Source: an uncultured Gammaproteobacteria bacterium (GTDB lineage Bacteria; Patescibacteriota; Microgenomatia; Daviesbacterales; UBA10151). Taken from it: 64,000 bases of DNA. Numbering within the stretch: position 1 is the stretch's first letter; every line of letters begins with the position of its first letter. Of this stretch, positions 3,986-64,000 are shown piece by piece. The stretch lies in the NCBI GenBank assembly GCA_964625535.1, contig CAZVEX010000004.1, positions 38,166-102,165 on the forward strand, in the 5' to 3' direction. The notes below the pieces were generated by a model, which saw only the letters and a list, made by a program, of their open reading frames with translations, was not told where the DNA came from and ran no database searches. The position numbers and the translations under genes are program-made.

Positions 3986-4923
3986 GAACGACCTGCATTG
4001 ATGATTCTTCTTGATTTCAGGAAAAAGTAGCCTACAATCAGGGCTGTGGAGACAGGGGAAAACCAGCTGGGGATATGAAAGCCAAAAGAACCCAGCAGCA
4101 TAATCGATCCTAAAACCAAGATTGAATACATAGCTCCGTTTTTTAAAAAAGCATATTTTTTAATTCTGTCTATGTTGGAAACCGTTAGCTGCCTGACTAT
4201 AATAGCTCCAATGCCGTTTCCCAGCAAAATCAAGGGGACGGATAGAGTAAAGGCAAAGGCTCCCACTACTCCGTCAATGGAAAACGTTCCATCCAGCACT
4301 TCCAGATAAAAAATTTTACTGACATCCGATTGAGAAATCAGCTTTTGACCGTCTGTTTGATGCAGCAACCGCTCCTCCATTTTGGCGGCATTTTCCTTAA
4401 ATCCGTGGACGATAAAAAAAGCTGTTGAGCCAACTACCGCCCCGAAAGCCATAAGGGGATTTTGTTGCAGGGCAAACCAGACCACTACACTTAAAATTAT
4501 GGACACCACGGCATAAAACCACACTCCTTGTCTTTGAAAAAAGGGCTCACCCCGCAACCCAAATTTTTTTGGTTCCAGAAAAAGCCAGTGAAAAAAGATA
4601 AAAACCATAAAGATCCCACCTCCTGATAGTAAAATGGGAGATGAGTTTTCTATGGCCTCGACTACCTTTGGGTCAGAGCTCAAAGCGGCAGTCAAAGCAC
4701 CCATCGGACCAAGACCGGGATTGATGGCCCACACCAACAGCCAGGGCAGCGCCCCCCGAATTAAAAAGACGGCAATGATAATCCCCCAGAGCAAAAACCA
4801 TTTCCTGGCTTGTTTACCCATAGTGGATAGCACATCGGCATTGATAATGGCATTATCAATTGAGGTGATTGTTTCAAAAAGTATCAGTCCTGCCACAATC
4901 AAGATGATTGATAAAAGATCCAT
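3982..4923 (-). CDS. TerC/DUF475-family integral membrane protein
   Basis: The N-terminus MDLLSIILIVAGLILFETITSIDNAIINA is typical of the TerC/DUF475 family. There are multiple TM helices. The stop overlaps the convergent upstream gene by 4 bp. Confidence 0.6.
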   Translation of the reverse strand: MDLLSIILIVAGLILFETITSIDNAIINADVLSTMGKQARKWFLLWGIIIAVFLIRGALPWLLVWAINPGLGPMGALTAALSSDPKVVEAIENSSPILLSGGGIFMVFIFFHWLFLEPKKFGLRGEPFFQRQGVWFYAVVSIILSVVVWFALQQNPLMAFGAVVGSTAFFIVHGFKENAAKMEERLLHQTDGQKLISQSDVSKIFYLEVLDGTFSIDGVVGAFAFTLSVPLILLGNGIGAIIVRQLTVSNIDRIKKYAFLKNGAMYSILVLGSIMLLGSFGFHIPSWFSPVSTALIVGYFFLKSRRIINAGRS

Positions 4924-4948: not shown

Positions 4949-6217
4949 ATGGTCAAAACAGGCAAATTTTTTTCCCTGAAAAAAATACTGATTTTTTTGC
5001 TGATTTTTTTAGCCGGCGCTGCCTTGTACTTAAAGACTTCATCAACAAAACAGGTCAGCTTTTATCGGGCTTTTGTATCCGAGTCGTTTGACAAAATTAA
5101 AGAAAACTACTGGGATAATCTCTCCGACGAACAGATTCTTGATCTTTTTAAACTTTCTATTGAAAAAGCAACAGGCTCGTCTCAACAAGCAAAGATAAAC
5201 TCCAAGGAAGAACTATTGAGCGTATTTATTAAGCTGCAAAATAATTTAAATGAGGAGCAGAAAAAACAACTGTCCGTAAATGTGGTTTCTGCAGTTTTAG
5301 CCAACTTAAATCCTCCGGGTAGAAGCGGTCTTTTTACCCAAAAACAGGAAGAACAACTTAAAAATACCGTGGAAAATATCAATCCGGAAAAAGATTTGTA
5401 CAAGGATTTGGGGCTTTCTAAAGGGGCATCTCCGGCAGCAATTGAGCAGGCATTTCAAAAAAAGTCCGAGGATCTAAAAAAGGAAACCTCCCCGGAGGCC
5501 AAACAAAAACTGGAGCAAATTGCTTACGCCAGGGATGTGTTGGGCAAGAACGAGCAAAAACAAAGATATGATGAAAAAGGGGTGGAGCCAGCTGTTTTTA
5601 TCAAACTGGCAGCCCCTCAAATTTTATATCTGCAGTTTAAAAAATTCACCCCCACCTCGCTGGATGAGTTTCAAAAAGCTCTGGAAGCTTACCAAGATAA
5701 CTCCGCTTTGCAGGCTTTAATTTTTGATTTGCGGGGCAATGTAGGCGGAGCCATTGATGCCACGGCCTATTTTTTGGGATATTTTTTAGGCAAAGGTCAG
5801 TATGCTTTTGATTTTTACAAAAAAGGGGAGTATTTGCCTTTTAAAACCCAGACAGATAAATTACCAGCAATAAATAAATTTAAACAGATGGTAATATTGG
5901 TGGACAAAGAAACTCAATCCTCAGCTGAAATGATGGCCGCTTCTTTGAAAAAATACCATACGGGAGTGGTGGTAGGGACCGCCACCAAAGGATGGGGGAC
6001 AGTGGAGCGGGTCTTTCCCCTGCAGGCCCAAATTGATCCGAAAGAAAAATATTCAGTCTTTTTAGTTCACTCCATCACTTTGCGGGATGATAATTTGCCT
6101 ATTGAAGGTCGCGGTGTGGAACCGGATATCAATATAAATTCACCTGATTGGCAAAACCAACTTTTTTCCTATTTTAGAAATTCCGAACTGATCTCGGCTG
6201 TGAAACAAGCATACTAA
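4949..6217 (+). CDS. S41-family C-terminal processing peptidase with an embedded J-like domain lacking HPD
   Basis: S41 motifs are LIFDLRGNVGGAID and ILVDKETQSSAEMMAAS. An N-terminal TM anchor is present. The internal segment DLYKDLGLSKGASPAAIEQAFQKKSEDLKKETSPEAKQKLEQIAYARDVLGKNEQKQRYDEKG aligns to a DnaJ J-domain, but the HPD tripeptide is replaced by KKETSPE. Confidence 0.75.
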   Translation: MVKTGKFFSLKKILIFLLIFLAGAALYLKTSSTKQVSFYRAFVSESFDKIKENYWDNLSDEQILDLFKLSIEKATGSSQQAKINSKEELLSVFIKLQNNLNEEQKKQLSVNVVSAVLANLNPPGRSGLFTQKQEEQLKNTVENINPEKDLYKDLGLSKGASPAAIEQAFQKKSEDLKKETSPEAKQKLEQIAYARDVLGKNEQKQRYDEKGVEPAVFIKLAAPQILYLQFKKFTPTSLDEFQKALEAYQDNSALQALIFDLRGNVGGAIDATAYFLGYFLGKGQYAFDFYKKGEYLPFKTQTDKLPAINKFKQMVILVDKETQSSAEMMAASLKKYHTGVVVGTATKGWGTVERVFPLQAQIDPKEKYSVFLVHSITLRDDNLPIEGRGVEPDININSPDWQNQLFSYFRNSELISAVKQAY

Positions 6218-6723
6218 GCACCAAAGATCAAATCTTCAACATGCTGCCAATCTCGGGGATCCCTGGAGGAGGAAGTGACAACCGTAATTTTATCTGCCTC
6301 AAATACTAAGCCCGGCGGCAACTCCACTTGAGAAGCAATTTTTTCCCGGATTTCCATACCATGATCTCCGTACAAAAGACTGATATGGGGCATAAACAGG
6401 CTATTTTCCATATTAAATATTTGCTTTGAAGCCAGATTTGCTTCCATCAGTTTAGCGCTTGATTTGACTCTGACAAAAACATTCTGAAAATAGGTAGTGG
6501 AAAAAGAAACCTCTCCCAAGACCAGCTGGAAGGCATTTATTCTTGAAGCCAGCGCTTTTGTACCTTCCAGGATTGCCTTTTCACTGGTTTCAATATCTCC
6601 CAGTAAGGTCATGTGAGGCTCAAAAGAGGGCCCGCCGTATGTCTTGCTCAAATCCAAAATAATTTTTTCCAGGATATTTTTAATATCTAAAGGGGGAACA
6701 ATCCATAAAGTATATTTGTTCAC
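6214..6723 (-). CDS. 2H phosphoesterase superfamily protein (2'-5' RNA ligase / ThpR-like)
   Basis: Two HxT/S motifs (HMTL and HISL) in a 169-aa protein, as expected for LigT/ThpR. Confidence 0.7.
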   Translation of the reverse strand: MNKYTLWIVPPLDIKNILEKIILDLSKTYGGPSFEPHMTLLGDIETSEKAILEGTKALASRINAFQLVLGEVSFSTTYFQNVFVRVKSSAKLMEANLASKQIFNMENSLFMPHISLLYGDHGMEIREKIASQVELPPGLVFEADKITVVTSSSRDPRDWQHVEDLIFGA

Positions 6724-6771: not shown

Positions 6772-7257
6772 CTAGATTGTAGTAATATGCGCTTTTTTAG
6801 CCTCATCCGCTCGCCATTGGGCATTAATCACGCGCTCACCAACTATCACATCCTGTTTGGAATGAGCAGTAAATGGAAGTTTAGACGTTTCATTAAAAGC
6901 CACCCATGAAAAAGTGCCTTTTTTAAGACGGTTAAATTCTCGGGGATTATTTACTTCAGCATAAAATACATAATTAATTTTATCCCGTACATCATGAAAA
7001 TAATCATAGACCGGATAAATGTCTTTTGTTTTGAGATTTAAGTCTAATAATTCATTTATTATTCGTTGAAAAGCTACTTGAGCTTCTTCCCCCTCACTAC
7101 TCTCCCCTCCAAGAGTAGACCATAAAAAATCCGGGCTGTCTTTTTGTTGGGATTGAACTAAGAGAATCTGGTGAGTTTTTAGGCTGTAAAGAAATCCGCT
7201 GGCATAAAAGGAGGTTTGCACTGTTAGAGTATAGCACATTTTAAAATATGTTACCAT
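6772..7257 (-). CDS. NUDIX-fold protein, possibly catalytically degenerate
   Basis: ILLVQSQQKDSPDFLWSTLGGESSEGEEAQVAFQRIINEL aligns to the Nudix box region (GX5EX7R is present, but REUxEE is degraded to RIINEL). Confidence 0.5.
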   Translation of the reverse strand: MVTYFKMCYTLTVQTSFYASGFLYSLKTHQILLVQSQQKDSPDFLWSTLGGESSEGEEAQVAFQRIINELLDLNLKTKDIYPVYDYFHDVRDKINYVFYAEVNNPREFNRLKKGTFSWVAFNETSKLPFTAHSKQDVIVGERVINAQWRADEAKKAHITTI

Positions 7258-54907: not shown

Positions 54908-55130
54908 ATATATTGTGACAAATCTGGTTTCCAAACCAGAAGCAGTCAAAATAGACGAACAACAACAAAACGGTGAAGTGAACCTAAATTTAACCGTTGA
55001 CCCATCGGATATGGGGCTGATTATTGGCAAAAGCGGACAAACCATTAGAGCCATCAGGAAGTTATTAACAGTAAGGGCCATTGCCGAAAACATCAGGGTG
55101 AATTTGACTCTGGCAGAACCGGCCCAATGA
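54891..55130 (+). CDS. KH-domain RNA-binding protein (YlqC/UPF0109-like)
   Basis: MKDLLEYIVTNLVSKPEAVKIDEQ…GLIIGKSGQTIRAIRKLL contains the GxxG KH motif. It is nested within a longer listed ORF. Confidence 0.7.
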   Translation: MKDLLEYIVTNLVSKPEAVKIDEQQQNGEVNLNLTVDPSDMGLIIGKSGQTIRAIRKLLTVRAIAENIRVNLTLAEPAQ

Positions 55131-55786
55131 AGATTTCCATTATTACACTTTTCCCCGAAGTTTTTGACCCTATCTTAAATTCCAGTATTTTAAAAAGGGC
55201 CCAAGCTAAAGGTAAAGTTTCTTTTGAACTCATAAATCTTCGTGATTTTGGGGAAGGTAAACATAAGGTGGTTGACGATAGACCTTATGGAGGTGGAGTC
55301 GGAATGATTTTTAGAGCGGATATTTTGACTAAAGCTTTAAAATCAACTGATCGGGGAAAAGTTATCTTAACCTCTGCTTCTGGCAAACCATACAAACAGG
55401 TAGTGGCACAAAAACTCTCCAGGCTGAATCATATCATCATAGTTTGTGGCCATTACGAAGGAGTGGATCAAAGGTTTATTGAAAATCAAGTTGATGAGGA
55501 AATTAGTATAGGTGATTATGTTTTAACTGGAGGGGAAATACCTGCCATGGTTATCATGGATTCTATTACCAGACTAATTCCGGGAGTTCTGGAAAAACCC
55601 GAAGCCACACTAAATGAATCTTTTTCCCAAGGACTTTTAGAATACCCACACTATACCAGACCGGAAGTTTTTGAAGGAAAAAAGGTTCCGGAAGTTTTAC
55701 TTTCCGGAAATCATAAAAAAATCTCCCAGTGGCGTCGGGAAAAATCACTGGAAAAAACTAAAAAAGTCAGGCCGGATCTATATTAG
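55127..55786 (+). CDS. trmD: tRNA (guanine37-N1)-methyltransferase
   Basis: MKISIITLFPE, DDRPYGGGVGM and VCGHYEGVDQR are the TrmD SPOUT motifs. Confidence 0.9.
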   Translation: MKISIITLFPEVFDPILNSSILKRAQAKGKVSFELINLRDFGEGKHKVVDDRPYGGGVGMIFRADILTKALKSTDRGKVILTSASGKPYKQVVAQKLSRLNHIIIVCGHYEGVDQRFIENQVDEEISIGDYVLTGGEIPAMVIMDSITRLIPGVLEKPEATLNESFSQGLLEYPHYTRPEVFEGKKVPEVLLSGNHKKISQWRREKSLEKTKKVRPDLY

Positions 55787-55794
55787 TCCAAAAA

Positions 55795-56484
55795 CTATTC
55801 AAATGGATCCGCTTTGCCGGTCACGGTCAAGGGTACAGCAGTAGATACTTCGGTTCTGGCCAGCTTGGAAATCAGCTCTTCCTCTCCCGAGGAGATTTGG
55901 GGAAGCGGGGAGTCGATACTGCCCAAATTAGCCGGTATCGGAGTAAACATCGCTTCAATTGCCAAATTAGCGTCTACTATATCCCCCCCTCTACCTGATG
56001 AAACTTCTATATTAGTAACCCTCATTAGCCTGGGAGAGCTCTCAATGCTGCTTAAAAACCTACCGAGAAGGTTTTTGGCTCCGACAGCTTCCAGTCTAGC
56101 CCCAAAACTTTGCCCGGTGGATGATTTATTCCCGCTACCTGCTCCAAGAGACAATGCAGTAATAACAAATCCATTTTCGTTTGCTATATTCTGAAGTAAA
56201 ATAATAGTGCCGGCAAAATCTTTTTCTCCAGGCAGAGACGAAAGAACATAACTTACTTGACGGCGCAAACTATCTTCATCCAGACCCTCAAGCGCCTCAA
56301 CCTTGGTATTTAAAAACTCCGATCTGGTCCTAAAATCCTGCTCAAGGCGGGAATTTTTTAAGAATACTCCGATTTGGGGAATCAACACAAAGGTTAACAG
56401 GATAAGGCATGAAACAACCACCGCTGCCGGAAAAATAAACAGCCTGTATTTTTTATAAAATTTGCCCAAACTTTCTTTGTTCAT
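55795..56484 (-). CDS. pilO: Type IV pilus assembly protein PilO-like
   Basis: Bitopic membrane protein directly downstream of pilN, with N-terminal TM, coiled coil and a ferredoxin-like C-terminus. Assignment is by context. Confidence 0.55.
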   Translation of the reverse strand: MNKESLGKFYKKYRLFIFPAAVVVSCLILLTFVLIPQIGVFLKNSRLEQDFRTRSEFLNTKVEALEGLDEDSLRRQVSYVLSSLPGEKDFAGTIILLQNIANENGFVITALSLGAGSGNKSSTGQSFGARLEAVGAKNLLGRFLSSIESSPRLMRVTNIEVSSGRGGDIVDANLAIEAMFTPIPANLGSIDSPLPQISSGEEELISKLARTEVSTAVPLTVTGKADPFE

Positions 56485-57005
56485 TTGGTTTTAATTTTTA
56501 AACTAATCCTGTAAGTATTTTCTCTACCCCGGTTTAAGCTTTCCACCGACACCTCGGAAACTGCGGTTAAATCGGATATGAGAGTATCCAAAATAATCAC
56601 ATCCGGAATCACGGCGACCAATTGAGCATCGCCGGAGCGGTCAACATTTAAAGAACTGATGCCAATCTGGGAGGACAGCAACCCGTCGAGCAAAGCATAG
56701 GTGGAAACCTGTTTGGAAGTTACCCCCAGATACTGATTAATGGTAGAAAGTCTGTTTTTGATAAGGAGCAGAGAAGTTTGCCTACCGGCAAGTTGAGTAA
56801 CCTTTTCTTCTCCCTCAACGATTTTAGCTTCCACTGCCCTGATGTTTTGGCTTTGTAAAAAACGGATCCCCACCGCAATGGAGGCAAAAAAGGCTACCAG
56901 CAAAATGGCTGCGGTAGACATTAATTGAACCTTATAAAATTTAGCTTTCTTTATTTCATCGCTTAAATATTCTCGGGGTAATAAATTAATGGATATTCTT
57001 GCCAT
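56481..57005 (-). CDS. pilN: Type IV pilus assembly protein PilN
   Basis: N-terminal INLLPREY motif followed by a TM helix. Confidence 0.7.
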   Translation of the reverse strand: MARISINLLPREYLSDEIKKAKFYKVQLMSTAAILLVAFFASIAVGIRFLQSQNIRAVEAKIVEGEEKVTQLAGRQTSLLLIKNRLSTINQYLGVTSKQVSTYALLDGLLSSQIGISSLNVDRSGDAQLVAVIPDVIILDTLISDLTAVSEVSVESLNRGRENTYRISLKIKTK

Positions 57006-57007
57006 CT

Positions 57008-58045
57008 CTAATCCTCCCTTAAAGCCAAACCTGTTGCCACGGAGTAAAGGGGAGCCAGAGCGGACAGTTTCGCTTCCATTGCCTTATCTTTAATAATGCC
57101 GTACCAGGGGTCAGCTTCCTGCACTTCCAAACCCAGAGCATTGGCAAGGTATATCACCAAGCCCGGCATTTTGACTCCTCCTCCTGATAAAACCACTCTT
57201 TTTATCTGATTTTGTGGGTATTTACCGTCAAAAGCCTGCGCTATTCTTCTTCCCTCCATGGCAATAATATCAACCAGGGGTTTTAGAGCCTCAAACACTT
57301 TTCCCTCAAGCTGATCCTGATTTAAACCGTAGACTTTTTTATATTCCTCGGCCTGCGAGCCTTCAAAATTAAATTGCTGAGCCAGAGCCCGTGTCAGCGC
57401 TATACCGCCCGTAGAGATTGACCGGGTCAGCCAAATAAGCCCCTGAGACACAGTAGCAAAATCCGTTGAAGTTGCGCCAAGCTGAATAATTAAAGTGCTG
57501 GGGGAAAAGGGGTTTCTGCCCACCAATGAGCGGGTAATGGCAATAATATCTGTCTCCAGGGCTTTTGCTTTTATTCCGGCTAAAGAGAGTACTTTAATAT
57601 ATTTCTCAACTGCTATTTTGGGGGAGGCAATTACCAGCACTATGGTTTTGGAGTTTTTGTTTTTACTGTCGGATCTGGCTAAAACCTGCCAGTTTAAATT
57701 GACGTCGGATAAGGGCATGGGGATAAACTCCTCGGCCGCATATTTTATGGCGGACGAAAGTTCCTCATCCGTAAGGTAGGGCAAATCATCAATTACCCGG
57801 GTGAAAACTTTACTCTCGGGCAAGGCTACCACCGCCTCTTTGGTATCAATCCTGGAGTTGCTAAAAAGCCTTTTGATAGTTTCCGCAACTTTTTCCAGGT
57901 CAGCGTCCTGCTCGGAGATCATCCCGGGTAAAGGAGTTGGCAACGCTCCCAAAGTCAACAGTTTAGCTTGATTTCCATCAAGATTAATCTGAACTGCTTT
58001 GATGGAAAAAAAACCAATATCCAAACCAACATTAATTTTGGCCAT
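57008..58045 (-). CDS. pilM: Type IV pilus assembly protein PilM (actin-like ATPase fold)
   Basis: VGLDIGFFSIKAVQ… matches the FtsA/PilM fold. 345 aa. Confidence 0.8.
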   Translation of the reverse strand: MAKINVGLDIGFFSIKAVQINLDGNQAKLLTLGALPTPLPGMISEQDADLEKVAETIKRLFSNSRIDTKEAVVALPESKVFTRVIDDLPYLTDEELSSAIKYAAEEFIPMPLSDVNLNWQVLARSDSKNKNSKTIVLVIASPKIAVEKYIKVLSLAGIKAKALETDIIAITRSLVGRNPFSPSTLIIQLGATSTDFATVSQGLIWLTRSISTGGIALTRALAQQFNFEGSQAEEYKKVYGLNQDQLEGKVFEALKPLVDIIAMEGRRIAQAFDGKYPQNQIKRVVLSGGGVKMPGLVIYLANALGLEVQEADPWYGIIKDKAMEAKLSALAPLYSVATGLALRED

Positions 58046-58071
58046 AGGCAGTAGTTTTATTGTAACACTTT

Positions 58072-59853
58072 TTACTTTACTTGGTATGTTCCTTTAACCA
58101 AAGAGTATGATCCAGAAGGGCCGGATGAGAAAAGAATGGAAGCTAAACCTGTTTCATAATCTATTATTGAATCATTGGTTATTTTTATTTTCCAGGCTGT
58201 TATCTCTTTAAATTGGTTATTATTACCAGGATCAATAATTCCTTTATCCGCATAAAATACTCCTGTATTGCCTATATTTCCAATGGTGATGGCGCTGCTT
58301 CCGTTAGTCCTTGAGTCATAGGTTGTAAGAAGTACCAAAATACTATTTCCCTCTCCGCTGCCTATTAATTTATTCTGATTACCCATGATAGCTTTTCCAT
58401 CTGTAATAATTATTCCCGAACTTGTTCCGTAAGAGGGATCCAGTATAAACTTGTTTTCATTTCCCATGGTAATATCTCCGGTGATCCATAGAGGAGTTTT
58501 TACCTTAATGATGCACTGATTGCCCAAAGTTAGGTTACCAGTAAATTTACCTGGTCCCCAGGCAGTTTGGGAACCGCAAGTTGGTTGTGACAGAGAACCA
58601 GCTATGGCTGCCTCATTTTTCCACCCTAATATGTTTGCTTCTGAAATGGGAAAGGTTTTGGGCGGCGGGTCTTCCGATCCGGGATGGCAATGTGCATTGG
58701 GACAAGAACTACCACTTACAGTTGAATTTGTGATGGTTTGATAGTAAGCGTCCTTGTCAATTATTAAACTATCTATGGTGTTTGCATGAGCATCACCCGC
58801 TACCCTGGTACCATTTCCTGATAGGATAAAATTAGTAGTTCCACCCATGTATGTCTTAAAGCTTAAATCTCCTGAAAAAGAACTCCAGCTGGGATTACCC
58901 GCACTCCAATTGGGCGACCATTTGGGCACACCTCCGTTATAACTTTGAGCCAAATCATTTTGCCAGGACCAGTAATTGCCAGTATCAGAGGATGTATCAA
59001 TCATAATCCAATAAGTAGTGTCAGCAGAGAGTGTAGGATTTGTGGAAAAGGTGACATCTATCCATCCATATTCTGTTATCACTAAGCTTGAGGAAAGAGT
59101 TCCTGTGGCAAGTACCTCATTTTTTTTAGGGTTCCCGCCATCATCACCCAAAATTCTGACAGTTACATCCGGAGGATTGCCTATCTTTTTAACCTTTAAA
59201 GAAATTTTCCTAATCTTATCTGACATAGAAGGTTTAAAGCTTTGTGCAATATCAAGTCTTGTTTGCCCATCAATGCTCTTACCAAAAAGGTAATCAACAC
59301 AGGTTATACAATCTGTCTGCTGATCTGCAGTGGCTACAACCCCAGCTGCCACCCAAGCATCCCCGGTGATGGTATTATTATTACCCATGATTATGCTTCC
59401 ATTGGAAAAGATTGTCCCCTGAACCTGATTGTTGTTGCCAAGTTCCAACCCTCCTTCTCCAACCTGAATTCCATAAACAAATGCTGCTCCAACCCCTTTT
59501 GAGGCGGTTATTTTGACGGTTCTTTTTGCTCTCACCTTAGCTTTATTAGGTATATAGCCGGTGGACTCAATCACTTTGGTGGCAGGATCAATAGAAGTTA
59601 TGGTGACTGAATAGCTACCATCACCAAGGCCAGTTTCTACCTCCCCAGAGTAACTCCCACCAGTTTTATTGAGTGAGTTAATGGCTTTATCTATGCCGGC
59701 TTCGGCCAAGGCTGTGGCTTTTTCCGAATCTAGCGCGTAAGAGGCATTTTGAAAATAGATTTGCGCACCAGCAATAATGAAAAGCACGCTAAAAAGCACC
59801 ACTCCCAAGGCCACAAAAACAATAATTAAAATTTGACCGGACTCCTTAGTCAT
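58072..59853 (-). CDS. Large PilX-N-domain pilus-associated protein with beta-helix-like GNNN repeats
   Basis: N-terminus MTKESGQILIIVFVALGVVLFSVLFI is PilX-like. Repeated G(N)NN…G segments suggest a parallel beta-helix. 593 aa. Confidence 0.5.
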   Translation of the reverse strand: MTKESGQILIIVFVALGVVLFSVLFIIAGAQIYFQNASYALDSEKATALAEAGIDKAINSLNKTGGSYSGEVETGLGDGSYSVTITSIDPATKVIESTGYIPNKAKVRAKRTVKITASKGVGAAFVYGIQVGEGGLELGNNNQVQGTIFSNGSIIMGNNNTITGDAWVAAGVVATADQQTDCITCVDYLFGKSIDGQTRLDIAQSFKPSMSDKIRKISLKVKKIGNPPDVTVRILGDDGGNPKKNEVLATGTLSSSLVITEYGWIDVTFSTNPTLSADTTYWIMIDTSSDTGNYWSWQNDLAQSYNGGVPKWSPNWSAGNPSWSSFSGDLSFKTYMGGTTNFILSGNGTRVAGDAHANTIDSLIIDKDAYYQTITNSTVSGSSCPNAHCHPGSEDPPPKTFPISEANILGWKNEAAIAGSLSQPTCGSQTAWGPGKFTGNLTLGNQCIIKVKTPLWITGDITMGNENKFILDPSYGTSSGIIITDGKAIMGNQNKLIGSGEGNSILVLLTTYDSRTNGSSAITIGNIGNTGVFYADKGIIDPGNNNQFKEITAWKIKITNDSIIDYETGLASILFSSGPSGSYSLVKGTYQVK

Positions 59854-60415
59854 TTCTTAAGTTTGCCTCCGATGTGGCAATCGTCACCTCAAACTCCGTC
59901 CCGCTTTTTTGTTTTAGGGACAAGGTAATTTTGACTTTGGAAGCCAAAACGGGCGCAACCTCCTGGGGCGGGTTTGACGAATCAAAATATTTAAACTCTA
60001 TTCTGTCCGCATTGGTTAAAAAAATCCGGTCTTGACTCTTTCTGGAACTTACCTCGGCGGGATAAGTTTTAAGACGAAGTACACTTTGATCCAAAAAGAA
60101 AACAAAGTAATCAAAAGAGTTGGCGATGATATTATCCGCGTTATCAACCGAGGCAAGTTTTAAAATTAATTGACTGCTTCCGCTGGTGTAGCTTGGCGGC
60201 GGAGTCTCCGGGTAGGTGGCGGCAATGTTTTGAGCTTCTCTGACGGCGTTTCTGATATTGGAGAGCGCCTCATTGACTCCCAAACCCTGTTCTATCCTGG
60301 CGGACTGTTTTAAAAAAAGACCGGTGGAATTGACAATAATCACCACCAGCAGCGTCCCTACTATGGTAGCCACGCCCATGGCTACCAGCACTTCAACAAG
60401 AGTGAGGCCTTTCAT
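59846..60415 (-). CDS. Minor pilin / pseudopilin (prepilin-type N-terminus)
   Basis: MKGLTLVEVLVAMGV is the class III signal peptide motif. The listed ORF extends further upstream, but the conserved start overlaps the stop of the next gene (ATGA). Confidence 0.65.
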   Translation of the reverse strand: MKGLTLVEVLVAMGVATIVGTLLVVIIVNSTGLFLKQSARIEQGLGVNEALSNIRNAVREAQNIAATYPETPPPSYTSGSSQLILKLASVDNADNIIANSFDYFVFFLDQSVLRLKTYPAEVSSRKSQDRIFLTNADRIEFKYFDSSNPPQEVAPVLASKVKITLSLKQKSGTEFEVTIATSEANLRND

Positions 60416-60810
60416 TGGTTTATACCTCCTTCTCCGATAAAAGTTTTTAAAGATATTTGCTGATCCCTGCTTCCTTCCTTCCAGTTTATGGTCACGGTCA
60501 CCTGTTTGATATTCTCCGAACCGGTGCAAATTGACGGATCGCAATCTTCCACTTTACTCTGTCCGGCACCGGCTGGCAAAAGACTGATTCTTTGATCTGA
60601 AATTGAACTTACGTCATTAACTAAATTAATATAGCTTATATTTCTTTTGTCTTCAATTTCTTTGGCGGCAATTTCTCTGGCTAAAGACAAATGTCTGCTC
60701 TTACCGATTAAACCTATGGCATTGGGCAGATTAGCCATCAAAAAAACAGCGGCGCCAACAACCGCCACCACTAGGATTAATTCAATCAGAGAAATGCCTT
60801 TTCCCCTCAT
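60412..60810 (-). CDS. Minor pilin / pseudopilin
   Basis: MRGKGISLIELILVVAVVG is a prepilin cleavage/methylation motif. Confidence 0.65.
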   Translation of the reverse strand: MRGKGISLIELILVVAVVGAAVFLMANLPNAIGLIGKSRHLSLAREIAAKEIEDKRNISYINLVNDVSSISDQRISLLPAGAGQSKVEDCDPSICTGSENIKQVTVTINWKEGSRDQQISLKTFIGEGGINQ

Positions 60811-61646
60811 TTATTGATTGCTCCCACGGAAAAGATGCCGTAGTCAAAATACGGAGGGACCACCTTGTTCTGCTGGAAAAGTTGCAATTTTCTCTGCGTT
60901 TCTCCTGCCGTTCCGGTTGAAACTATGGCCTTCGATTGAGGGGGCAGCGAACAGTCCCTGCCGCATATGCCGGTGGCCCTCACGGCCAACGGCTGACCGG
61001 TGGAGTTGTAAAGCAATCTGGCTCTAATCAGCATTAAACCGGCTACTTCCTGTGGAGTAAACCCAAGAGTCTTTTGGCACTGGTACTGATTTGAACCGAG
61101 GGTATAGCCGCTGCAAGCAACTTTCTCAAATCTGTTATCGGGGGATCTGGTAATGTTATGGTCCAAAAACCATTTTCTGGATTGATAGCCTCCTGAAAAA
61201 TAAACCAGAGTTAACTCAAGAGCCGCTTGATCCGTTGAGGAATTACCCCAAAAAACATCAAGAGTAGATTGCTTGTAAAAGCTGGGTGGAGGATTGGCAA
61301 GGGAGTTGTAATCTGCCAGCCAGACATGGGCGGTTTCCTCCCTGGAAAGAGGCGGAAATTCCAGCGGAGCTTGTTGGGAACCGGCTGCCGCTTCCGCCGG
61401 CCCCAAATCGCCTCCTGCGACTGCTGCGGTTGAACCAATTTCCGAAAAATTAACAGAACCTGAGCCTCCTTTAAGTCTGTTCTCAATGCCTGCCTCAGCC
61501 GCGGAAAAAGCCCGTGACGATTGCTCTACTTTAGTGGAGGTGGAAATATCGGAAAGAGAACGCTGGATAACAGACAGCCCAATGGCCAAACCCACGCTCA
61601 TCACCAAAATCAGTATTAAAATAATCTGGCCATGTTGTTTTTTCAT
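60807..61646 (-). CDS. PilX-N-domain pilus assembly protein
   Basis: MKKQHGQIILILILVMSVGLAIGLSVIQRS is a PilX-like N-terminus. 279 aa. Confidence 0.5.
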   Translation of the reverse strand: MKKQHGQIILILILVMSVGLAIGLSVIQRSLSDISTSTKVEQSSRAFSAAEAGIENRLKGGSGSVNFSEIGSTAAVAGGDLGPAEAAAGSQQAPLEFPPLSREETAHVWLADYNSLANPPPSFYKQSTLDVFWGNSSTDQAALELTLVYFSGGYQSRKWFLDHNITRSPDNRFEKVACSGYTLGSNQYQCQKTLGFTPQEVAGLMLIRARLLYNSTGQPLAVRATGICGRDCSLPPQSKAIVSTGTAGETQRKLQLFQQNKVVPPYFDYGIFSVGAINK

Positions 61647-61658
61647 ATAATTATTATA

Positions 61659-62234
61659 CTACCTCAACTGCACGGTTGTCTGAAACTTAACCGGATCAAT
61701 TTGTTGGGCATCTGCTTGGACCCCGGGCTTTAAAATAAATTCCACGCTGACCGCATCCTTAAATCCCGGGGAAGGGTTTCTGGTAAATAGGCCGTTTTCC
61801 AGAGAGACCCCTGTTTTGGTGTTGGTATCGGTGAGTATATTAGCCCCTACTACTAGATCAGTACAAACACTAATTAAAAAAGCGCTGATGTCTCCGGCGG
61901 GGGGAACAGGTGAATCTTGCTCGATATAGCCGTTGGCCGCTCCGGCAGGTAGAACAAATTTAAATCTGGTGTAAGTGTTGTTTTTAACAATGACCATGGT
62001 ATCGGCGGTAGCGCAAATTATTTTGTCCGCGCTTCTTATTTGTTTATCAATATTGTCCAAAACCGCCTGCCCGTTTTGTTTGATTACCGAGAGTATTTGC
62101 GATTTATTGGAACCTCGCAAAGTATTGGCAAAAATTACCACCAGAATCACTCCTACCAAGGCAGTGATGGCAATCACCACTAGAATTTCCACTAATGTAA
62201 AACCACTTCGACTTCGCTCAGTGTAAACCTTCAT
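61659..62234 (-). CDS. Type IV pilin with an 11-residue leader (paralog)
   Basis: MKVYTERSRSG|FTLVEILVVIAI is a prepilin leader plus the FTLxE motif. Confidence 0.75.
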   Translation of the reverse strand: MKVYTERSRSGFTLVEILVVIAITALVGVILVVIFANTLRGSNKSQILSVIKQNGQAVLDNIDKQIRSADKIICATADTMVIVKNNTYTRFKFVLPAGAANGYIEQDSPVPPAGDISAFLISVCTDLVVGANILTDTNTKTGVSLENGLFTRNPSPGFKDAVSVEFILKPGVQADAQQIDPVKFQTTVQLR

Positions 62235-62704
62235 AGTTTTCCTAAAATAGTAGTCAGTTTTGATTCATGATCTCCTGCAAAATCACTCCATTTGACTTTG
62301 GCCGTAATCCTTTTTTGTTCCGCGGCCTGATCTTCTATCAAAAATTGCCTTTGGAAATTCGGGGCAATTGGTTCAGAGTTGGTACTAGTACCACCCATCA
62401 GGGTACTTGCGTTAAAATAAAAGTAGCAGTTGGCAGGACAGCTGAAAGAGATGGTCCAAAGCTCGCTGAAATTGCTGGTGTGACTACCATCGGCTCGGAT
62501 ATAATCAACTGCTCCGTTTCGATCACGCAAGCCTCTCATCCTTTCAATGCCTGCCTGGGCCAACTTGGTAGCCTGGGCCTGGTTTTTGGCCAGATTGGCA
62601 TTGCGCAGGGAAAAGATGACGGCAAAAGTTAAAGCCGAAACCACCAGAACCCCCACCGCCGAGGCCACTATCACCTCTAGTAAAGTTTGGCCCTTACTGG
62701 ACAT
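62231..62704 (-). CDS. Pilin-like protein (atypical +1 Gln)
   Basis: MSSKG|QTLLEVIVASAVGVLV is a prepilin-like N-terminal helix. Confidence 0.55.
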   Translation of the reverse strand: MSSKGQTLLEVIVASAVGVLVVSALTFAVIFSLRNANLAKNQAQATKLAQAGIERMRGLRDRNGAVDYIRADGSHTSNFSELWTISFSCPANCYFYFNASTLMGGTSTNSEPIAPNFQRQFLIEDQAAEQKRITAKVKWSDFAGDHESKLTTILGKL

Positions 62705-63278
62705 AAGTCCTACCTCCTTTGTCTATTATGACCTGTCTGGTAGAATTTGTCTTGGTATTTTTTAACTGAACTTGAAATTTATTGCAAGTTTGATAAATTA
62801 CCCGGTCAACAGATGACTCGAAAGAAATAGCAGTAGCTAAGAGTTTAAAAGTAAGCGCCGCATATGAGACAACATCAGTGGGGAGAGTATTTTCGCAGCC
62901 CGCACTGCCACTGTCAAAAATCTTTTCAATAATGATATTTGGGGGTAATTCATGTTTATTAATCACAGATTGAGTGAGCACAGCTCCATTGAAATAATAG
63001 CAGTCGGTTTGAGCTATATACTTGCCTGACTGTTTATAAAAATCAATTTTCCATAGGCCAACAGGCCGACCAGCACATTTAAGATTAGTTGAAGCATTGG
63101 TTTGGGCTGTTCTTACTTGGCTTTGGATATTCAAAGCCGCACTTTCCAAGTCTTTATCCTCTCCAAAAGATCTGTAATTGGCAATGGCCACCACACCCAA
63201 AATGGCCATTATTGACACTACCACCAACAGTTCAATTAGGGTAAACCCACTTCGGCTCCGATCAGTGTAAACACGCAT
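62694..63278 (-). CDS. Type IV pilin (paralog)
   Basis: MRVYTDRSRSG|FTLIELLVVVSI. Confidence 0.75.
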   Translation of the reverse strand: MRVYTDRSRSGFTLIELLVVVSIMAILGVVAIANYRSFGEDKDLESAALNIQSQVRTAQTNASTNLKCAGRPVGLWKIDFYKQSGKYIAQTDCYYFNGAVLTQSVINKHELPPNIIIEKIFDSGSAGCENTLPTDVVSYAALTFKLLATAISFESSVDRVIYQTCNKFQVQLKNTKTNSTRQVIIDKGGRTYVQ

Positions 63279-63299
63279 ATATCCATGATATCACAAGAT

Positions 63300-63803
63300 T
63301 TATGGCGGAGTCACCCGGAAGTTATAGGTTGTAGCACCACCACAAGTGTATGTTGGGCTTGTGGGTCCATTTTCCAGCTTGGCATATAAACTATAGCCAG
63401 TACAGCGGTCTGTAGGGGAGTTATCACAAGCTGTACGCGGACTAGGTAGGTAACAATATCTTGGGGAGCCGAGAGGATCTTTTGGAGGAGAGTTTAAATA
63501 TATTTTAACAGTTGCCGGCGGTGAAGGATTACCTGTGCTGCTGGTAAATGCTACGGGGGGATCGGCGTTTAAAATATTCATACCTGGATCTGTGGGATAA
63601 AAACCCTGATCATTATGATATTGTTCCAGGGCGGATTGGATACTCCTTAAATCCGATTGTCTTTTTGAGTCTCGGCCGCTTTTTAAAACAGTAGTATAAG
63701 AAACGAAACCTATGGCAGCCAAAACTGCAATAATGGAGATGGTAATTAAAAGTTCAATCAGGGTAAAACCACTTCGACTGCGTTCAGTGTAAACATTTTT
63801 CAC
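63300..63803 (-). CDS. Type IV pilin (paralog), GTG start
   Basis: (M)KNVYTERSRSG|FTLIELLITISI, with a C-terminal Cys pair. Confidence 0.75.
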   Translation of the reverse strand: MKNVYTERSRSGFTLIELLITISIIAVLAAIGFVSYTTVLKSGRDSKRQSDLRSIQSALEQYHNDQGFYPTDPGMNILNADPPVAFTSSTGNPSPPATVKIYLNSPPKDPLGSPRYCYLPSPRTACDNSPTDRCTGYSLYAKLENGPTSPTYTCGGATTYNFRVTPP

Positions 63804-64000
63804 TGTTGATTAACCAGACAATATGTTCCACCAGCCTCAAGAGTCGCACAGACATTGTAACTTGCAGCGACAGCTGCGGGAATGCCGGTATAAGCAGCGC
63901 CTCCCGGAGAAGGATTAGAAGGGATGATTCCATTAGAAAACCAACCTGCTACAACAGGACAGTAAGGATTGGTAGCTGTTGCACCGCAAGATGTATCGTT
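63800..64000 (-). CDS. Type IV pilin paralog, C-terminal part only (5' end beyond the window)
   Basis: The minus-strand frame is open from the window edge and ends …CGATATNPYCPVVAGWF…NVCATLEAGGTYCLVNQQ*. A disulfide-loop-like Cys pair is present. Its TGA overlaps the GTG of the downstream pilin (GTGA). Confidence 0.5.
   Translation of the reverse strand, partial: NDTSCGATATNPYCPVVAGWFSNGIIPSNPSPGGAAYTGIPAAVAASYNVCATLEAGGTYCLVNQQ

Follow-up and report, generated by a model that had tools for sequence, protein, structure and literature searches.

The window, a 64-kb stretch of DNA from an uncultured groundwater bacterium of Candidatus Daviesbacteria, contains on its minus strand the distal two-thirds of a standard type IV pilus operon of this group. 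The locus is real and typical of Patescibacteria (CPR). Within the window, genes for 167-, 194-, 157- and 191-aa pilins are followed by one for a 279-aa PilX/GspK-like protein, by two for small minor pilins and one for a 593-aa beta-solenoid/lectin protein, and finally by pilM, pilN and pilO; all the ORF positions given in an earlier note on this sequence were confirmed. That note had also proposed looking for further pil genes beyond the window. Contigs extending past its end contain pilC, a 183-aa pilin, pilD and a 126-aa pilin, with pilD and the 3' end of pilC immediately past the end; in the syntenic relative L006, pilB-pilT-pilC stand ahead of the matching gene order, and pilC occupies the equivalent position in relatives L009 and L016. 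These neighbors bear out the identification of a type IV pilus locus. The operon encodes ten proteins with a class III signal and a single observed PilD, and neither the window nor the retrieved loci showed a secretin gene.

The gene pilM (57008..58045, minus strand, as are all features below) is a solid assignment, matching PF11104 with 163 bits. The identification of pilO (55795..56484) was borderline, at 21.4 bits for PF04350 against a cutoff of 22, and its L006 ortholog has a precomputed PilO match. For pilN (56481..57005) there was no Pfam match, and the assignment relies on its position, likewise occupied in L006 and L016, and on the N-terminal INLLP motif (here ISINLLP). PilMNO would constitute the alignment complex.

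Only the 3' end of the 126-aa pilin gene (63800..64000, the C-terminal 66 codons) lies in the window; the full gene, on contig L001 (1560-1940), matched IV_pilin_GFxxxE with 34.7 bits. The GTG start of the GspG-like 167-aa pilin (63300..63803) overlaps the stop codon of the upstream gene (GTGA), and its product matched N_methyl (33.1 bits) and T2SSG (27 bits, above the cutoff of 21). The 194-aa pilin (62694..63278) showed a sub-threshold GspH match (36 bits, cutoff 80); its AF2 model (pLDDT 88) has a lollipop fold, with a helix at residues 14-64 followed by an all-beta head, and Foldseek returned no pilin match for it, recovering neither GspH nor FimU. A 157-aa minor pilin (62231..62704), with the leader MSSKG before QTLLE, resembles PilV/GspI (sub-threshold TIGR02523 PilV match, E=1.9e-4), and the ATG of the 191-aa pilin (61659..62234) overlaps the upstream stop (ATGA). 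The 279-aa PilX/GspK-like protein (60807..61646) starts with MKKQHG and continues with QIILI, lacking Glu5, and has orthologs at the equivalent position in L006, L015 and L016. Next come a 132-aa minor pilin (60412..60810; MRGKG before ISLIE), with an ortholog in L006, and a 189-aa minor pilin (59846..60415; MKG before LTLVE). The true start of the latter is an internal ATG of the 232-aa longest ORF, in which N_methyl falls at residues 45-66; the 189-aa length is also found in independent assemblies.

The pilin-like genes had been described as at least five major-pilin paralogs, possibly serving antigenic variation. They are, however, only about 13-28% identical to each other outside the N-terminal helix, with sub-threshold family matches in a GspG/GspH/PilV(GspI)/pseudopilin order. 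The globular parts of the 167-, 194- and 191-aa pilins, which share a leader (see below), are about 19% identical to each other, and for each of the three, L006, L009 and L016 have an ortholog of its own (38-78% identity). Judging from their sequences, these are ancient, divergent pilin classes rather than major-pilin paralogs, which argues against both earlier proposals. The filament subunit would probably be the 126-aa or the upstream 183-aa pilin, and the 167-, 194-, 157-, 191- and 279-aa proteins may make up a GspG/H/I/J/K-like set, with minor pilins for priming or for the tip, as suggested, for the GspH/I/J/K-like members, by sub-threshold matches and gene order.

The claim of two PilX-N-domain proteins found little backing, because the 279-aa protein reached 15.2 bits with PilX_N (cutoff 25.5) and the 593-aa protein (58072..59853) had no PilX_N match. 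The latter, whose N-terminus reads MTKESG and then QILII, has over 700 homologs in Microgenomates. In its AF2 model (pLDDT 84), a long, pilin-like N-terminal helix precedes a beta-solenoid into which a choice-of-anchor-R beta-sandwich is inserted, this domain being matched with 44.8 bits (choice_anch_R, cutoff 30). The GNNN-type repeats previously pointed out are present, the protein is predicted to be a beta-solenoid, and this architecture makes the proposed tip adhesin plausible: the protein is a candidate tip or adhesin subunit, likely acting as a distal adhesin or receptor. In Foldseek searches, its model gave partial matches to phage baseplates and a weak one to ComZ of Thermus thermophilus (PDB 6qvi; E=2e-3, probability 0.75, with a TM-score of only 0.13-0.17). 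Competence-associated ComZ is also a large pilin-like protein placed among minor pilins that combines a beta-solenoid with an inserted beta domain, although the two share no sequence similarity.

Locus one of Nanosynbacter lyticus TM7x (Saccharibacteria) comprises pilB1, pilT, pilC1, pilD, pilM1N1O1, five pilins and a large lectin-like minor pilin, PilX1 (PMC11623550). Both loci have the same machinery set, with pilD among the pilin genes, several minor pilins resembling T2SS pseudopilins, and one very large minor pilin whose signal is atypical (no Glu5) and which has a beta-sandwich/lectin-type accessory domain; leader sequences are not mentioned in that paper, where the word leader occurs zero times (PMC11623550). 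Conversely, the two differ in phylum, the window operon belonging to Microgenomates/Daviesbacteria, in the higher number of pilin-like genes here (n=10), and in the large subunit, which is a beta-solenoid with a choice-of-anchor-R insert and not a jelly-roll or propeller alone. In Pseudomonas, the core minor pilins of the type IVa pilus and PilY1 are encoded in the order fimU-pilV-pilW-pilX-pilY1-pilE, and the minor pseudopilins of type II secretion are GspH-I-J-K. The window shows a similar arrangement of GspH-like (194 aa), PilV/GspI-like (157 aa), pseudopilin-like (191 aa) and PilX/GspK-like (279 aa, without Glu5) proteins plus a large non-canonical subunit, and their role would likewise be assembly priming and tip formation. 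Unlike in those systems, the family matches in this comparison are all under curated cutoffs, structural searches failed to link the 194-aa model to GspH or FimU, and PilY1 is no homolog of the 593-aa protein.

Three genes begin with the leader M(K/R)(N)VYT(E/D)RSRSG before FTL(I/V)E, as the earlier note had reported: MKNVYTERSRSG before FTLIE in the 167-aa pilin, MRVYTDRSRSG before FTLIE in the 194-aa pilin, and MKVYTERSRSG before FTLVE in the 191-aa pilin. At the DNA level, the leader module spans 26-27 nt, and the 64 kb contain exactly three occurrences of the 26-nt motif (0-3 mismatches), with none expected by chance: copy A (63769..63794, GTTTACACTGAACGCAGTCGAAGTGG, two mismatches to the consensus), copy B (63247..63272, GTTTACACTGATCGGAGCCGAAGTGG, three mismatches) and copy C (62203..62228, GTTTACACTGAGCGAAGTCGAAGTGG, the consensus form). 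All 26 nt of copy C are identical to copies in L007, L008, L009 and L011. The module always lies 2-8 codons downstream of the start codon, with Arg always encoded by CGN and Ser by AGY, including the rare codons CGA (6% of Arg) and AGT (12% of Ser); given the peptide, the probability of the consensus codons under the codon usage of the window is 6e-7. Codon identity at positions with the same amino acid was 71% in the module versus 41% in the next 15 codons. Across 12 independent genes, the peptide showed only conservative changes (E/D, S/T, T/N).

Could these shared leaders be an artefact of assembly duplication, chimerism or mis-called starts? The NCBI annotation does start the 194-aa gene at an internal Met (171 aa), thereby losing the leader. 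However, the gene bodies are only about 19% identical, synonymous differences separate the three module copies, there is no other in-frame start between M1 and the obligatory Gly-1 of the three carriers, and the same arrangement recurs in independent Logan assemblies from seven runs (including SRR12113383, -384, -419, -420, -422 and -424), which excludes assembly duplicates. Together, these results effectively refute an artefact.

The distribution of the module is patchy. The other seven class-III-signal proteins of the operon have short, unrelated leaders, and the partial ORF at 63800-64000, thought by position to share the motif, actually has MKKLLPPRG before FTLVE. Nor, in this clade, is the leader unusually long, as had been stated: among 194-aa orthologs, leaders of 3 up to about 30 residues occur, and the 183-aa pilin of the window genome has one of 12. 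None of the pilins in L006, the closest syntenic genome, has the motif, and neither do some 80 orthologs of the 194-aa gene, which elsewhere have short leaders. In L009, the 194-aa ortholog lacks it, and it is present on the counterparts of the 126-, 167- and 191-aa genes. One of these, a 145-aa pilin whose globular part is 95% identical to the 126-aa pilin of the window, begins with MKNSARVYTERSRSG, as opposed to MKKLLPPRG in the window and MRKFLPTSRG in L006, indicating a recent gain. In L008 and L012, the module lies on major-pilin-like genes adjoining pilC, and several paralogs per genome bear it in the window genome, L009 and L012. Two tandem pilins of L012 share an identical DNA tract, from CGAAGTCGAAGTGG to about 70 nt into the mature region, which from its sequence is a conversion tract. 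The 5' half of the module diverges in L012 (GTC TAC ACA GAG versus GAT TAT ACC AAT), and variants with CGG/AGC codons exist. The 26-nt motif recurs in a few distant CPR pilins, and degenerate, codon-unbiased scans of 185,579 species genomes and 241 million metagenome records yielded only about seven further loci. Even lineages whose PilD proteins share only 40% identity have this consensus unchanged. Rarity of this kind, taken with the fixed codons and the full nucleotide identity, favors one origin of the module and either youth or constraint.

The earlier note interpreted the leader as a lineage-specific recognition element; in such a role it would be recognized by the prepilin peptidase, or by a cytoplasmic partner, and mark a functional subclass of pilins. 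The conservative changes in the peptide and the multiple carriers per genome agree with this view, but we consider it unlikely: the carriers differ among close relatives, with none in L006, the module reaches major-pilin-like genes, seven other substrates in the operon do without it, and PilD insertions and deletions across genomes with and without the motif do not track its presence. Somewhat less improbable, though still doubtful, is a functional element at the nucleotide level, either an mRNA site (for a translational regulator or RNase, setting minor-pilin stoichiometry) or a DNA site for recombination exchanging pilin 5' ends. Selection on nucleotides would then account for the identity across CPR classes; it would also fit the synonymous sites, whose conservation greatly exceeds that in the neighboring helix codons conserved at the protein level, the rare codons, the identity despite distant PilD proteins and the constant position. 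Nevertheless, the module has no Rfam match, its predicted hairpin is only 4+2 bp (-2.5 kcal/mol) and lacks covariation, the window contains no complementary partner or extra copies, the 5' half is free to diverge in L012, codon variants exist, and the module is very rare and missing from sister genomes with an equivalent operon.

In Neisseria, leader-region repeats (CTCTT in the signal-peptide region of opa) cause phase variation, and gene conversion occurs among pilE/pilS pilin copies. Both systems involve repetitive DNA where surface-protein genes code for the signal or leader, and conversion homogenizing the 5' ends of paralogs. A contingency switch whose copy number toggles pilins or alters the leader would be consistent with the duplicated CGAAGT of the window module, with the tandem units in L016 leaders (period 14 and 15, 2.3-3.1 copies, varying by paralog) and with the related module there, TERG as compared with TERSRSG. 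Yet it is very improbable, since the window hexamer has only two copies, known contingency loci have far higher copy numbers, and the modules showed no polymorphism among independent assemblies from the seven runs. Furthermore, the moving part in the CPR operon is the leader and not a variable antigenic domain.

The best explanation, which we regard as probable but not secure, is a standard CPR pilus operon with a mobile leader module derived by stutter. Read in the +1 frame, the module encodes FTLSEVEV, extending as FTLSEVEVVL, and a match to F[TS]L.E in any frame was found in only 88 of 300,000 random 32-mers. The pilins of L016 have leaders of the form GFTTF...G|FTL, in frame, with tandem stutter repeats of this unit, detected by TRF as GTTTACACGAACGTA (x2.3) and GAACGTAGTTTACAC (x2.7). 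The module may thus have arisen as an out-of-frame duplicate of the sequence coding for the prepilin cleavage site (GGTTTTACNCTN..GAA), been copied from one pilin gene to another, non-orthologous one in the same genome (gene conversion or template switching), and probably been passed on to other CPR lineages by horizontal transfer. Against this, identity over 26 nt at 40% PilD identity is hard to obtain by transferring so short a patch, and nothing conserved lies 5' of the module that could act as a homology arm; the conservatively kept peptide is a hint that the module is under selection and not neutral. Under the stutter-derived origin, the single PilD of the operon would process all ten class-III-signal proteins, cleaving at G|F/Q/I/L and removing the module, which would be tolerated because prepilin peptidases need little beyond Gly-1 and the following hydrophobic helix.

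The 55795-64000 stretch of the window is an ordinary CPR type IV pilus operon, which agrees with the locus type assigned by the earlier note and is indicated by a strong PilM match, class III signal substrates, and pilD and the 3' end of pilC just past the window. The whole pilus gene set is closely packed on the minus strand. From the window end it comprises the last 66 codons of a 126-aa pilin gene (63800-64000, a partial ORF), genes for pilins of 167 aa (63300-63803), 194 aa (62694-63278), 157 aa (62231-62704) and 191 aa (61659-62234), a 279-aa protein (60807-61646), small pilins of 132 aa (60412-60810) and 189 aa (59846-60415, a gene over-extended by its longest ORF of 232 aa), a 593-aa protein (58072-59853), and pilM (57008-58045), pilN (56481-57005) and pilO (55795-56484). 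PilM, with an actin-like ATPase fold, matched PF11104 at 163.4 bits (cutoff 27) and PilO scored 21.4 bits for PF04350 (cutoff 22); the product of pilN, located between pilM and pilO, had no Pfam match and starts with MARISINLLP.

The class III signal consists of a short basic leader, Gly-1, a hydrophobic helix and Glu5. The N-methylation motif (N_methyl or TIGR02532) was above cutoff in the proteins of 126, 167, 183, 189, 191 and 194 aa; against the N_methyl cutoff of 21.2 bits, the 189-aa protein scored 21.4 and the 157-aa protein 19.4. The signal of the 132-aa protein was recognised by eye, and G↓Q(I)(I/L)L(I), with no Glu5, is the corresponding stretch in the proteins of 279 and 593 aa (the arrow marks the cleavage site). 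Homologs carry the name Candidatus Daviesbacteria (Microgenomates, CPR/Patescibacteria). The remainder of the window encodes housekeeping functions, including tRNA synthetases, ATP synthase, PBP, RecG, trmD and nine tRNAs, and no further pilus machinery was found among ten large ORFs scanned there. Scans for promoters and terminators gave a signal no higher than background, and a group I intron match within trmD (55143-55379, minus strand; 17.7 bits, gathering score 50, E=0.66) is almost certainly due to chance.

Exact-protein look-ups retrieved short contigs of the same organism, independently assembled from several sequencing runs. One of them, L001, reaches past the window end and starts with the 3' end of pilC, followed by the genes for a 183-aa pilin, PilD and the complete 126-aa pilin; the tail of the last is the partial ORF of the window. 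For the window genome, pilC is represented by its final 51 codons (L001 2-157). The 183-aa pilin (L001 221-772) has the leader MKKPAQVLHKGG↓FTLVE, and the prepilin peptidase PilD (L001 753-1523, 256 aa, just outside the window; A24_N_bact 88 bits, Peptidase_A24 60 bits) retains both catalytic Asp and four Cys. The Daviesbacteria relative L006 (GCA_016198215.1) contains pilB-pilT-pilC-pilin-pilD and then the same gene series up to pilMNO. The loci of two other Daviesbacteria relatives, L009 and L016, have the same core, with pilC ahead of the same gene order. Neither the window nor the L001, L006, L009 and L016 loci showed a secretin gene.

These loci differ in their accessory content. An IS200/IS605-type Y1 transposase gene lies directly downstream of pilO in L006 (17688-18356) and is missing from that position in the window. 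The L016 locus has an expanded set of 13 pilin-like genes, with toxin-antitoxin/abortive-infection genes (HicA toxin, AbiEii) inserted within the pilin array (1696-2195 and 5464-6373). In the metagenome contig L012, pilD and the pilin genes alternate with two small ORFs of 120 and 125 aa (6333-6695 and 4278-4655), whose products may be similar to "four-helix-bundle / 23S rRNA intervening-sequence" proteins. The globular part of the 126-aa pilin is 95% identical to its L009 ortholog, whereas the neighbouring 167-aa pilin shows just 54% identity; the pilin locus is thus a mosaic when close relatives are compared, which suggests allele replacement within the operon.

The earlier note had counted at least five major-pilin paralogs, a count that does not survive comparison of the proteins. 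Outside the N-terminal helix, pairwise identity among the pilin-like proteins of the operon is 13-28% (about 19% among the three that carry the leader module described below), and each of these three has a separate ortholog, with 38-78% identity, in L006, L009 and L016. Low globular identity and distinct orthologs for each gene are not what recent duplicates or antigenic variants would show, and these genes are not a set of major-pilin paralogs. Family matches, most of them sub-threshold, run in the order known for priming minor pilins: the 167-aa protein matched T2SSG (PF08334, 27.0 bits, above the cutoff of 21) and NCBIfam GspG (49 bits, under the cutoff of 88.85), the 194-aa protein GspH (TIGR01708, 36.2 bits, under the cutoff of 80), and the 157- and 191-aa proteins gave sub-threshold matches to PilV/XpsI and to pseudopilin models, respectively. 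Nor could the two PilX-N-domain proteins of the earlier note be upheld, because the 279-aa protein, which comes next in this order, scored 15.2 bits for PilX_N (PF14341), under the cutoff of 25.5, and the N-terminus of the 593-aa protein had no match to this family; the resemblance is confined to the G↓QI(I/L)LI start and an AEAGI motif. A PDB sequence search with the 279-aa protein was empty or insignificant.

For the 194-aa protein, AF2 (pLDDT 88) gave a pilin-like lollipop with a helix and a beta-head. As Foldseek returned no PDB match at E<=1e-3 for this model, the protein stays a candidate, unproven GspH/FimU-type minor pilin. Its NCBI-derived gene call (window 62694-63278, minus strand; protein P0001) is 171 aa long and starts 23 residues late, at an internal helix Met (MAILGVV...), losing the leader and the cleavage motif. 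Because public gene calls lose such N-termini, counting pilins by their signal gives too low a number for CPR genomes.

The 593-aa protein is far better conserved than the pilins, with over 700 homologs, among the best 120 of which identity is 59-97%. It starts with MTKESG↓QILII, a class-III-like signal with no Glu5, and residues 213-331 match the choice-of-anchor-R domain NF041539 (44.8 bits, cutoff 30). The AF2 model (pLDDT 84) predicts a helix of 60 residues at the N-terminus and a small sheet, together with a beta-solenoid that a beta-sandwich interrupts. Foldseek aligned parts of it with phage baseplate/central-fibre proteins (E=4e-6, about 190 columns) and carbohydrate-binding modules; the global match to the Thermus competence pilin ComZ (6qvi) was weak (E=2.3e-3, probability 0.75, TM 0.13-0.17), and a profile search found no sequence relative in the PDB. 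The suggestion of the earlier note that this is a candidate tip adhesin is reasonable, and the protein may be described as a candidate adhesin or receptor at the tip. It has a parallel in PilX1 and PilX2, large lectin-like minor pilins of TM7x Saccharibacteria (PMC11623550).

The 167-, 194- and 191-aa pilin genes start with MKNVYTERSRSG, MRVYTDRSRSG and MKVYTERSRSG, immediately ahead of FTL(I/V)E. No alternative in-frame start exists in these three genes between Met1 and the obligatory Gly-1, and in two of them the start overlaps the stop codon of the gene before it (GTGA, ATGA). The window has exactly three copies of the 26-nt motif, where chance would give none, and these copies differ solely at third codon positions. 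The shared leader reported by the earlier note is thus real for three genes; its extension to the partial ORF at 63800 was wrong, because the complete 126-aa pilin has the leader MKKLLPPRG. The seven other proteins of the operon with a class III signal have short, unrelated leaders.

Neither the length of this leader nor its distribution sets the lineage apart, contrary to the earlier note, which considered it unusually long and a lineage-specific recognition element. Among 194-aa gene orthologs from about 80 other Daviesbacteria, leader length varies from 3 to about 30 residues (MKG, MPKG, MLSAQRG and others) and none carries the module, which is also missing from the pilins of L006, the closest syntenic genome (76% identical ortholog). 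The subset of carriers differs in L009, where the 126-, 167- and 191-aa orthologs carry the module and the 194-aa ortholog has MKVMPKG. The leader of the 126-aa pilin is MKNSARVYTERSRSG in L009, as compared with MKKLLPPRG in the window and MRKFLPTSRG in L006; since the L009 protein is 95% identical to that of the window in its globular part and yet differs in its leader, the module was gained recently. We compared PilD from the module-positive window genome, L009 and L008 (a Saccharibacteria locus) with that of the module-negative L006: the catalytic Asp and the four Cys are kept in all, and two insertions are spread independently of the module. The earlier note had named a leader motif that is ordinary for the lineage, with no peptidase co-variation, as refuting its proposal, and at least as regards the peptidase this is the outcome obtained.

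Two other peculiarities of leaders were observed. In a subgroup of Daviesbacteria 194-aa orthologs (P0002, P0008, P0011, P0024, P0032, P0040, P0054 and L006 10001-10576), Ala replaces Gly at -1 (M.KAVPNA↓FTLIELL), which is unusual for PilD substrates. Compared with the 183-aa pilin of L001 (221-772), its 199-aa ortholog in L009 (5887-6486) has an extra LPAGRQ in the leader (…HKGLPAGRQG↓FTLVE), and the ending AGRQG is common to this protein and to P0108, a non-orthologous 191-type pilin. AGRQG is a second leader piece found on different pilin classes.

Scans for the module used a pattern degenerate at all synonymous positions, so that codon choice could not bias the outcome. They found an exact match to the peptide VYTERSRSG↓FT in only 2 of 185,579 species genomes and in four metagenome contigs, one of which (L010) has the same sequence as the genome match L008, from a Saccharibacteria MAG whose module-bearing pilin gene lies between pilC and pilD. 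Further carriers are L011 (Hainich groundwater), L012 (Ga0105099, two tandem pilins) and the Daviesbacteria relative L009. An identical module is on a 308-aa pilin of L007 (CAZFYQ010000009.1), in a MAG labelled "uncultured Gammaproteobacteria"; this could point either to a binning error or to occurrence of the module beyond CPR. The consensus GTTTACACTGAGCGAAGTCGAAGTGG is identical in the window copy of the 191-aa gene, L007, L008, L009 and L011.

Codon choice in the module varies little. Arg is always CGN and Ser always AGY, CGA and AGT account for 6% of Arg and 12% of Ser codons in the window, and the probability of the consensus codons, given the peptide, is 6e-7. In a comparison of 12 distinct genes, 71% of same-amino-acid codon pairs are identical within the module versus 41% in the next 15 codons, and third-position entropy is about 0.6 versus about 1.4 bits. 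Variants of the module include VYNERSRSG (with CGG/AGC codons), VYTERTRSG and DYTNRSRSG. A 39-residue HMMER search of 1.84 billion representatives, which had little power, gave VYTERTRSG, VYNERSRSG and the L016 family, and a protein search with a query made by artificially doubling the leader and helix gave short unrelated pilins only. No paper on the leader peptide was found in full-text literature searches; a 2026 preprint on a "novel pilus system in CPR" describes a Sec-dependent chaperone-type pilus, a different system.

The module itself hints at how it could have originated. Its +1 frame reads FTLSEVEVVL, like a prepilin N-terminus (Phe1-Thr2-Leu3, Glu5), and F[TS]L.E appears in any frame of 88 of 300,000 random 32-mers. 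Three L016 paralogs have in common a different leader, GFTTFMRTERG↓FTL, an in-frame GFT remnant followed by TERG, and two other L016 leaders read GFTTFSLLRFGL...HERSLHERSLHERG↓FTL. Tandem units identified by TRF in L016 are GTTTACACGAACGTA (x2.3), GAACGTAGTTTACAC (x2.7) and TTTACTACGTTCAG (x3.1), and the unit GTTTACAC(T)GA(A/G)CG corresponds to the 5' half of the window module. Adjacent pilin genes in L012 have identical DNA from CGAAGTCGAAGTGG to about 70 nt into the mature region and are diverged upstream, indicating a conversion tract. Taken together, the leaders of this clade have probably been assembled from stuttered copies of cleavage-site DNA, in or out of frame, and homogenised between paralogs by conversion. 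The module would most likely be a tolerated N-terminal extension that is cleaved off. Prepilin peptidases need little beyond Gly-1 and the following hydrophobic segment, which fits the wide diversity of leaders among orthologs. As the module is rare, patchily distributed and nearly identical between its carriers, recent spread, both horizontal and within genomes, is more likely than ancient inheritance.

Repeats occur within or just upstream of the leader-coding regions of two L016 pilins (2756-2847 and 6894-7015), with periods of 14 (x2.7, x3.1), 15 (x2.3, x2.7) and 7 (AATTTAC x4.4), and a change in copy number of the 14-nt repeat would shift the reading frame. A phase-variable contingency locus in leader-coding repeats is unlikely in the window species, since the window has just two copies of the hexamer and the module is unchanged, with no length polymorphism, in all independent assemblies from seven sequencing runs. 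A function of the module at the nucleotide or peptide level is kept as a possibility, because transfer of 26 nt without a conserved 5' flank, which the module lacks, is mechanistically awkward and because the changes in the peptide are conservative, although we consider such a function rather improbable. We assign a similarly low likelihood to the view that the cassette GTTTACACTGAGCGAAGTCGAAGTGG and its relatives (in L016, the modules with GFTTFMRTERG and with the HERSL repeat) are a mobile or functional nucleotide element specific to pilin 5' ends, and not passive scars of stutter. Such an element would move horizontally between CPR classes and by conversion between paralogs, and might be a recombination handle that re-assorts pilin bodies with expression signals, or a post-transcriptional control site for a subset of pilins. 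Degenerate and exact motif scans of viral contigs were empty, giving no sign of a phage vehicle, and neither a complementary partner nor extra copies of the module were found in the window. There was no sign of a known structured RNA family at the module: Rfam gave no match over 55000-64000 besides the chance intron, and RNAalifold on 12 module-bearing 5' regions (-2.5 kcal/mol, 0 compensatory pairs) revealed no meaningful conserved structure or covariation. The leader is a rare, hopping, probably stutter-derived module, and its nucleotide identity across lineages makes it a modest but real curiosity.

The operon itself adds little, as type IV pili are nearly universal in CPR and have been genetically dissected in Saccharibacteria. 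The new aspect is the separate, modular evolution of the leader-coding DNA in CPR pilins. This module may arise by stutter of the cleavage site, is common to unrelated pilin genes in one genome, is swapped in the time that the remainder of a pilin takes to change by only 5%, and recurs with the same nucleotides in distant CPR lineages. In practice, signal-based annotation of pilins in CPR MAGs misses genes whose starts are called late. If a function or directed mobility of the module were true, it would add a new level to the dynamics of pilin genes in bacteria that rely on pili to attach to hosts and to take up DNA.
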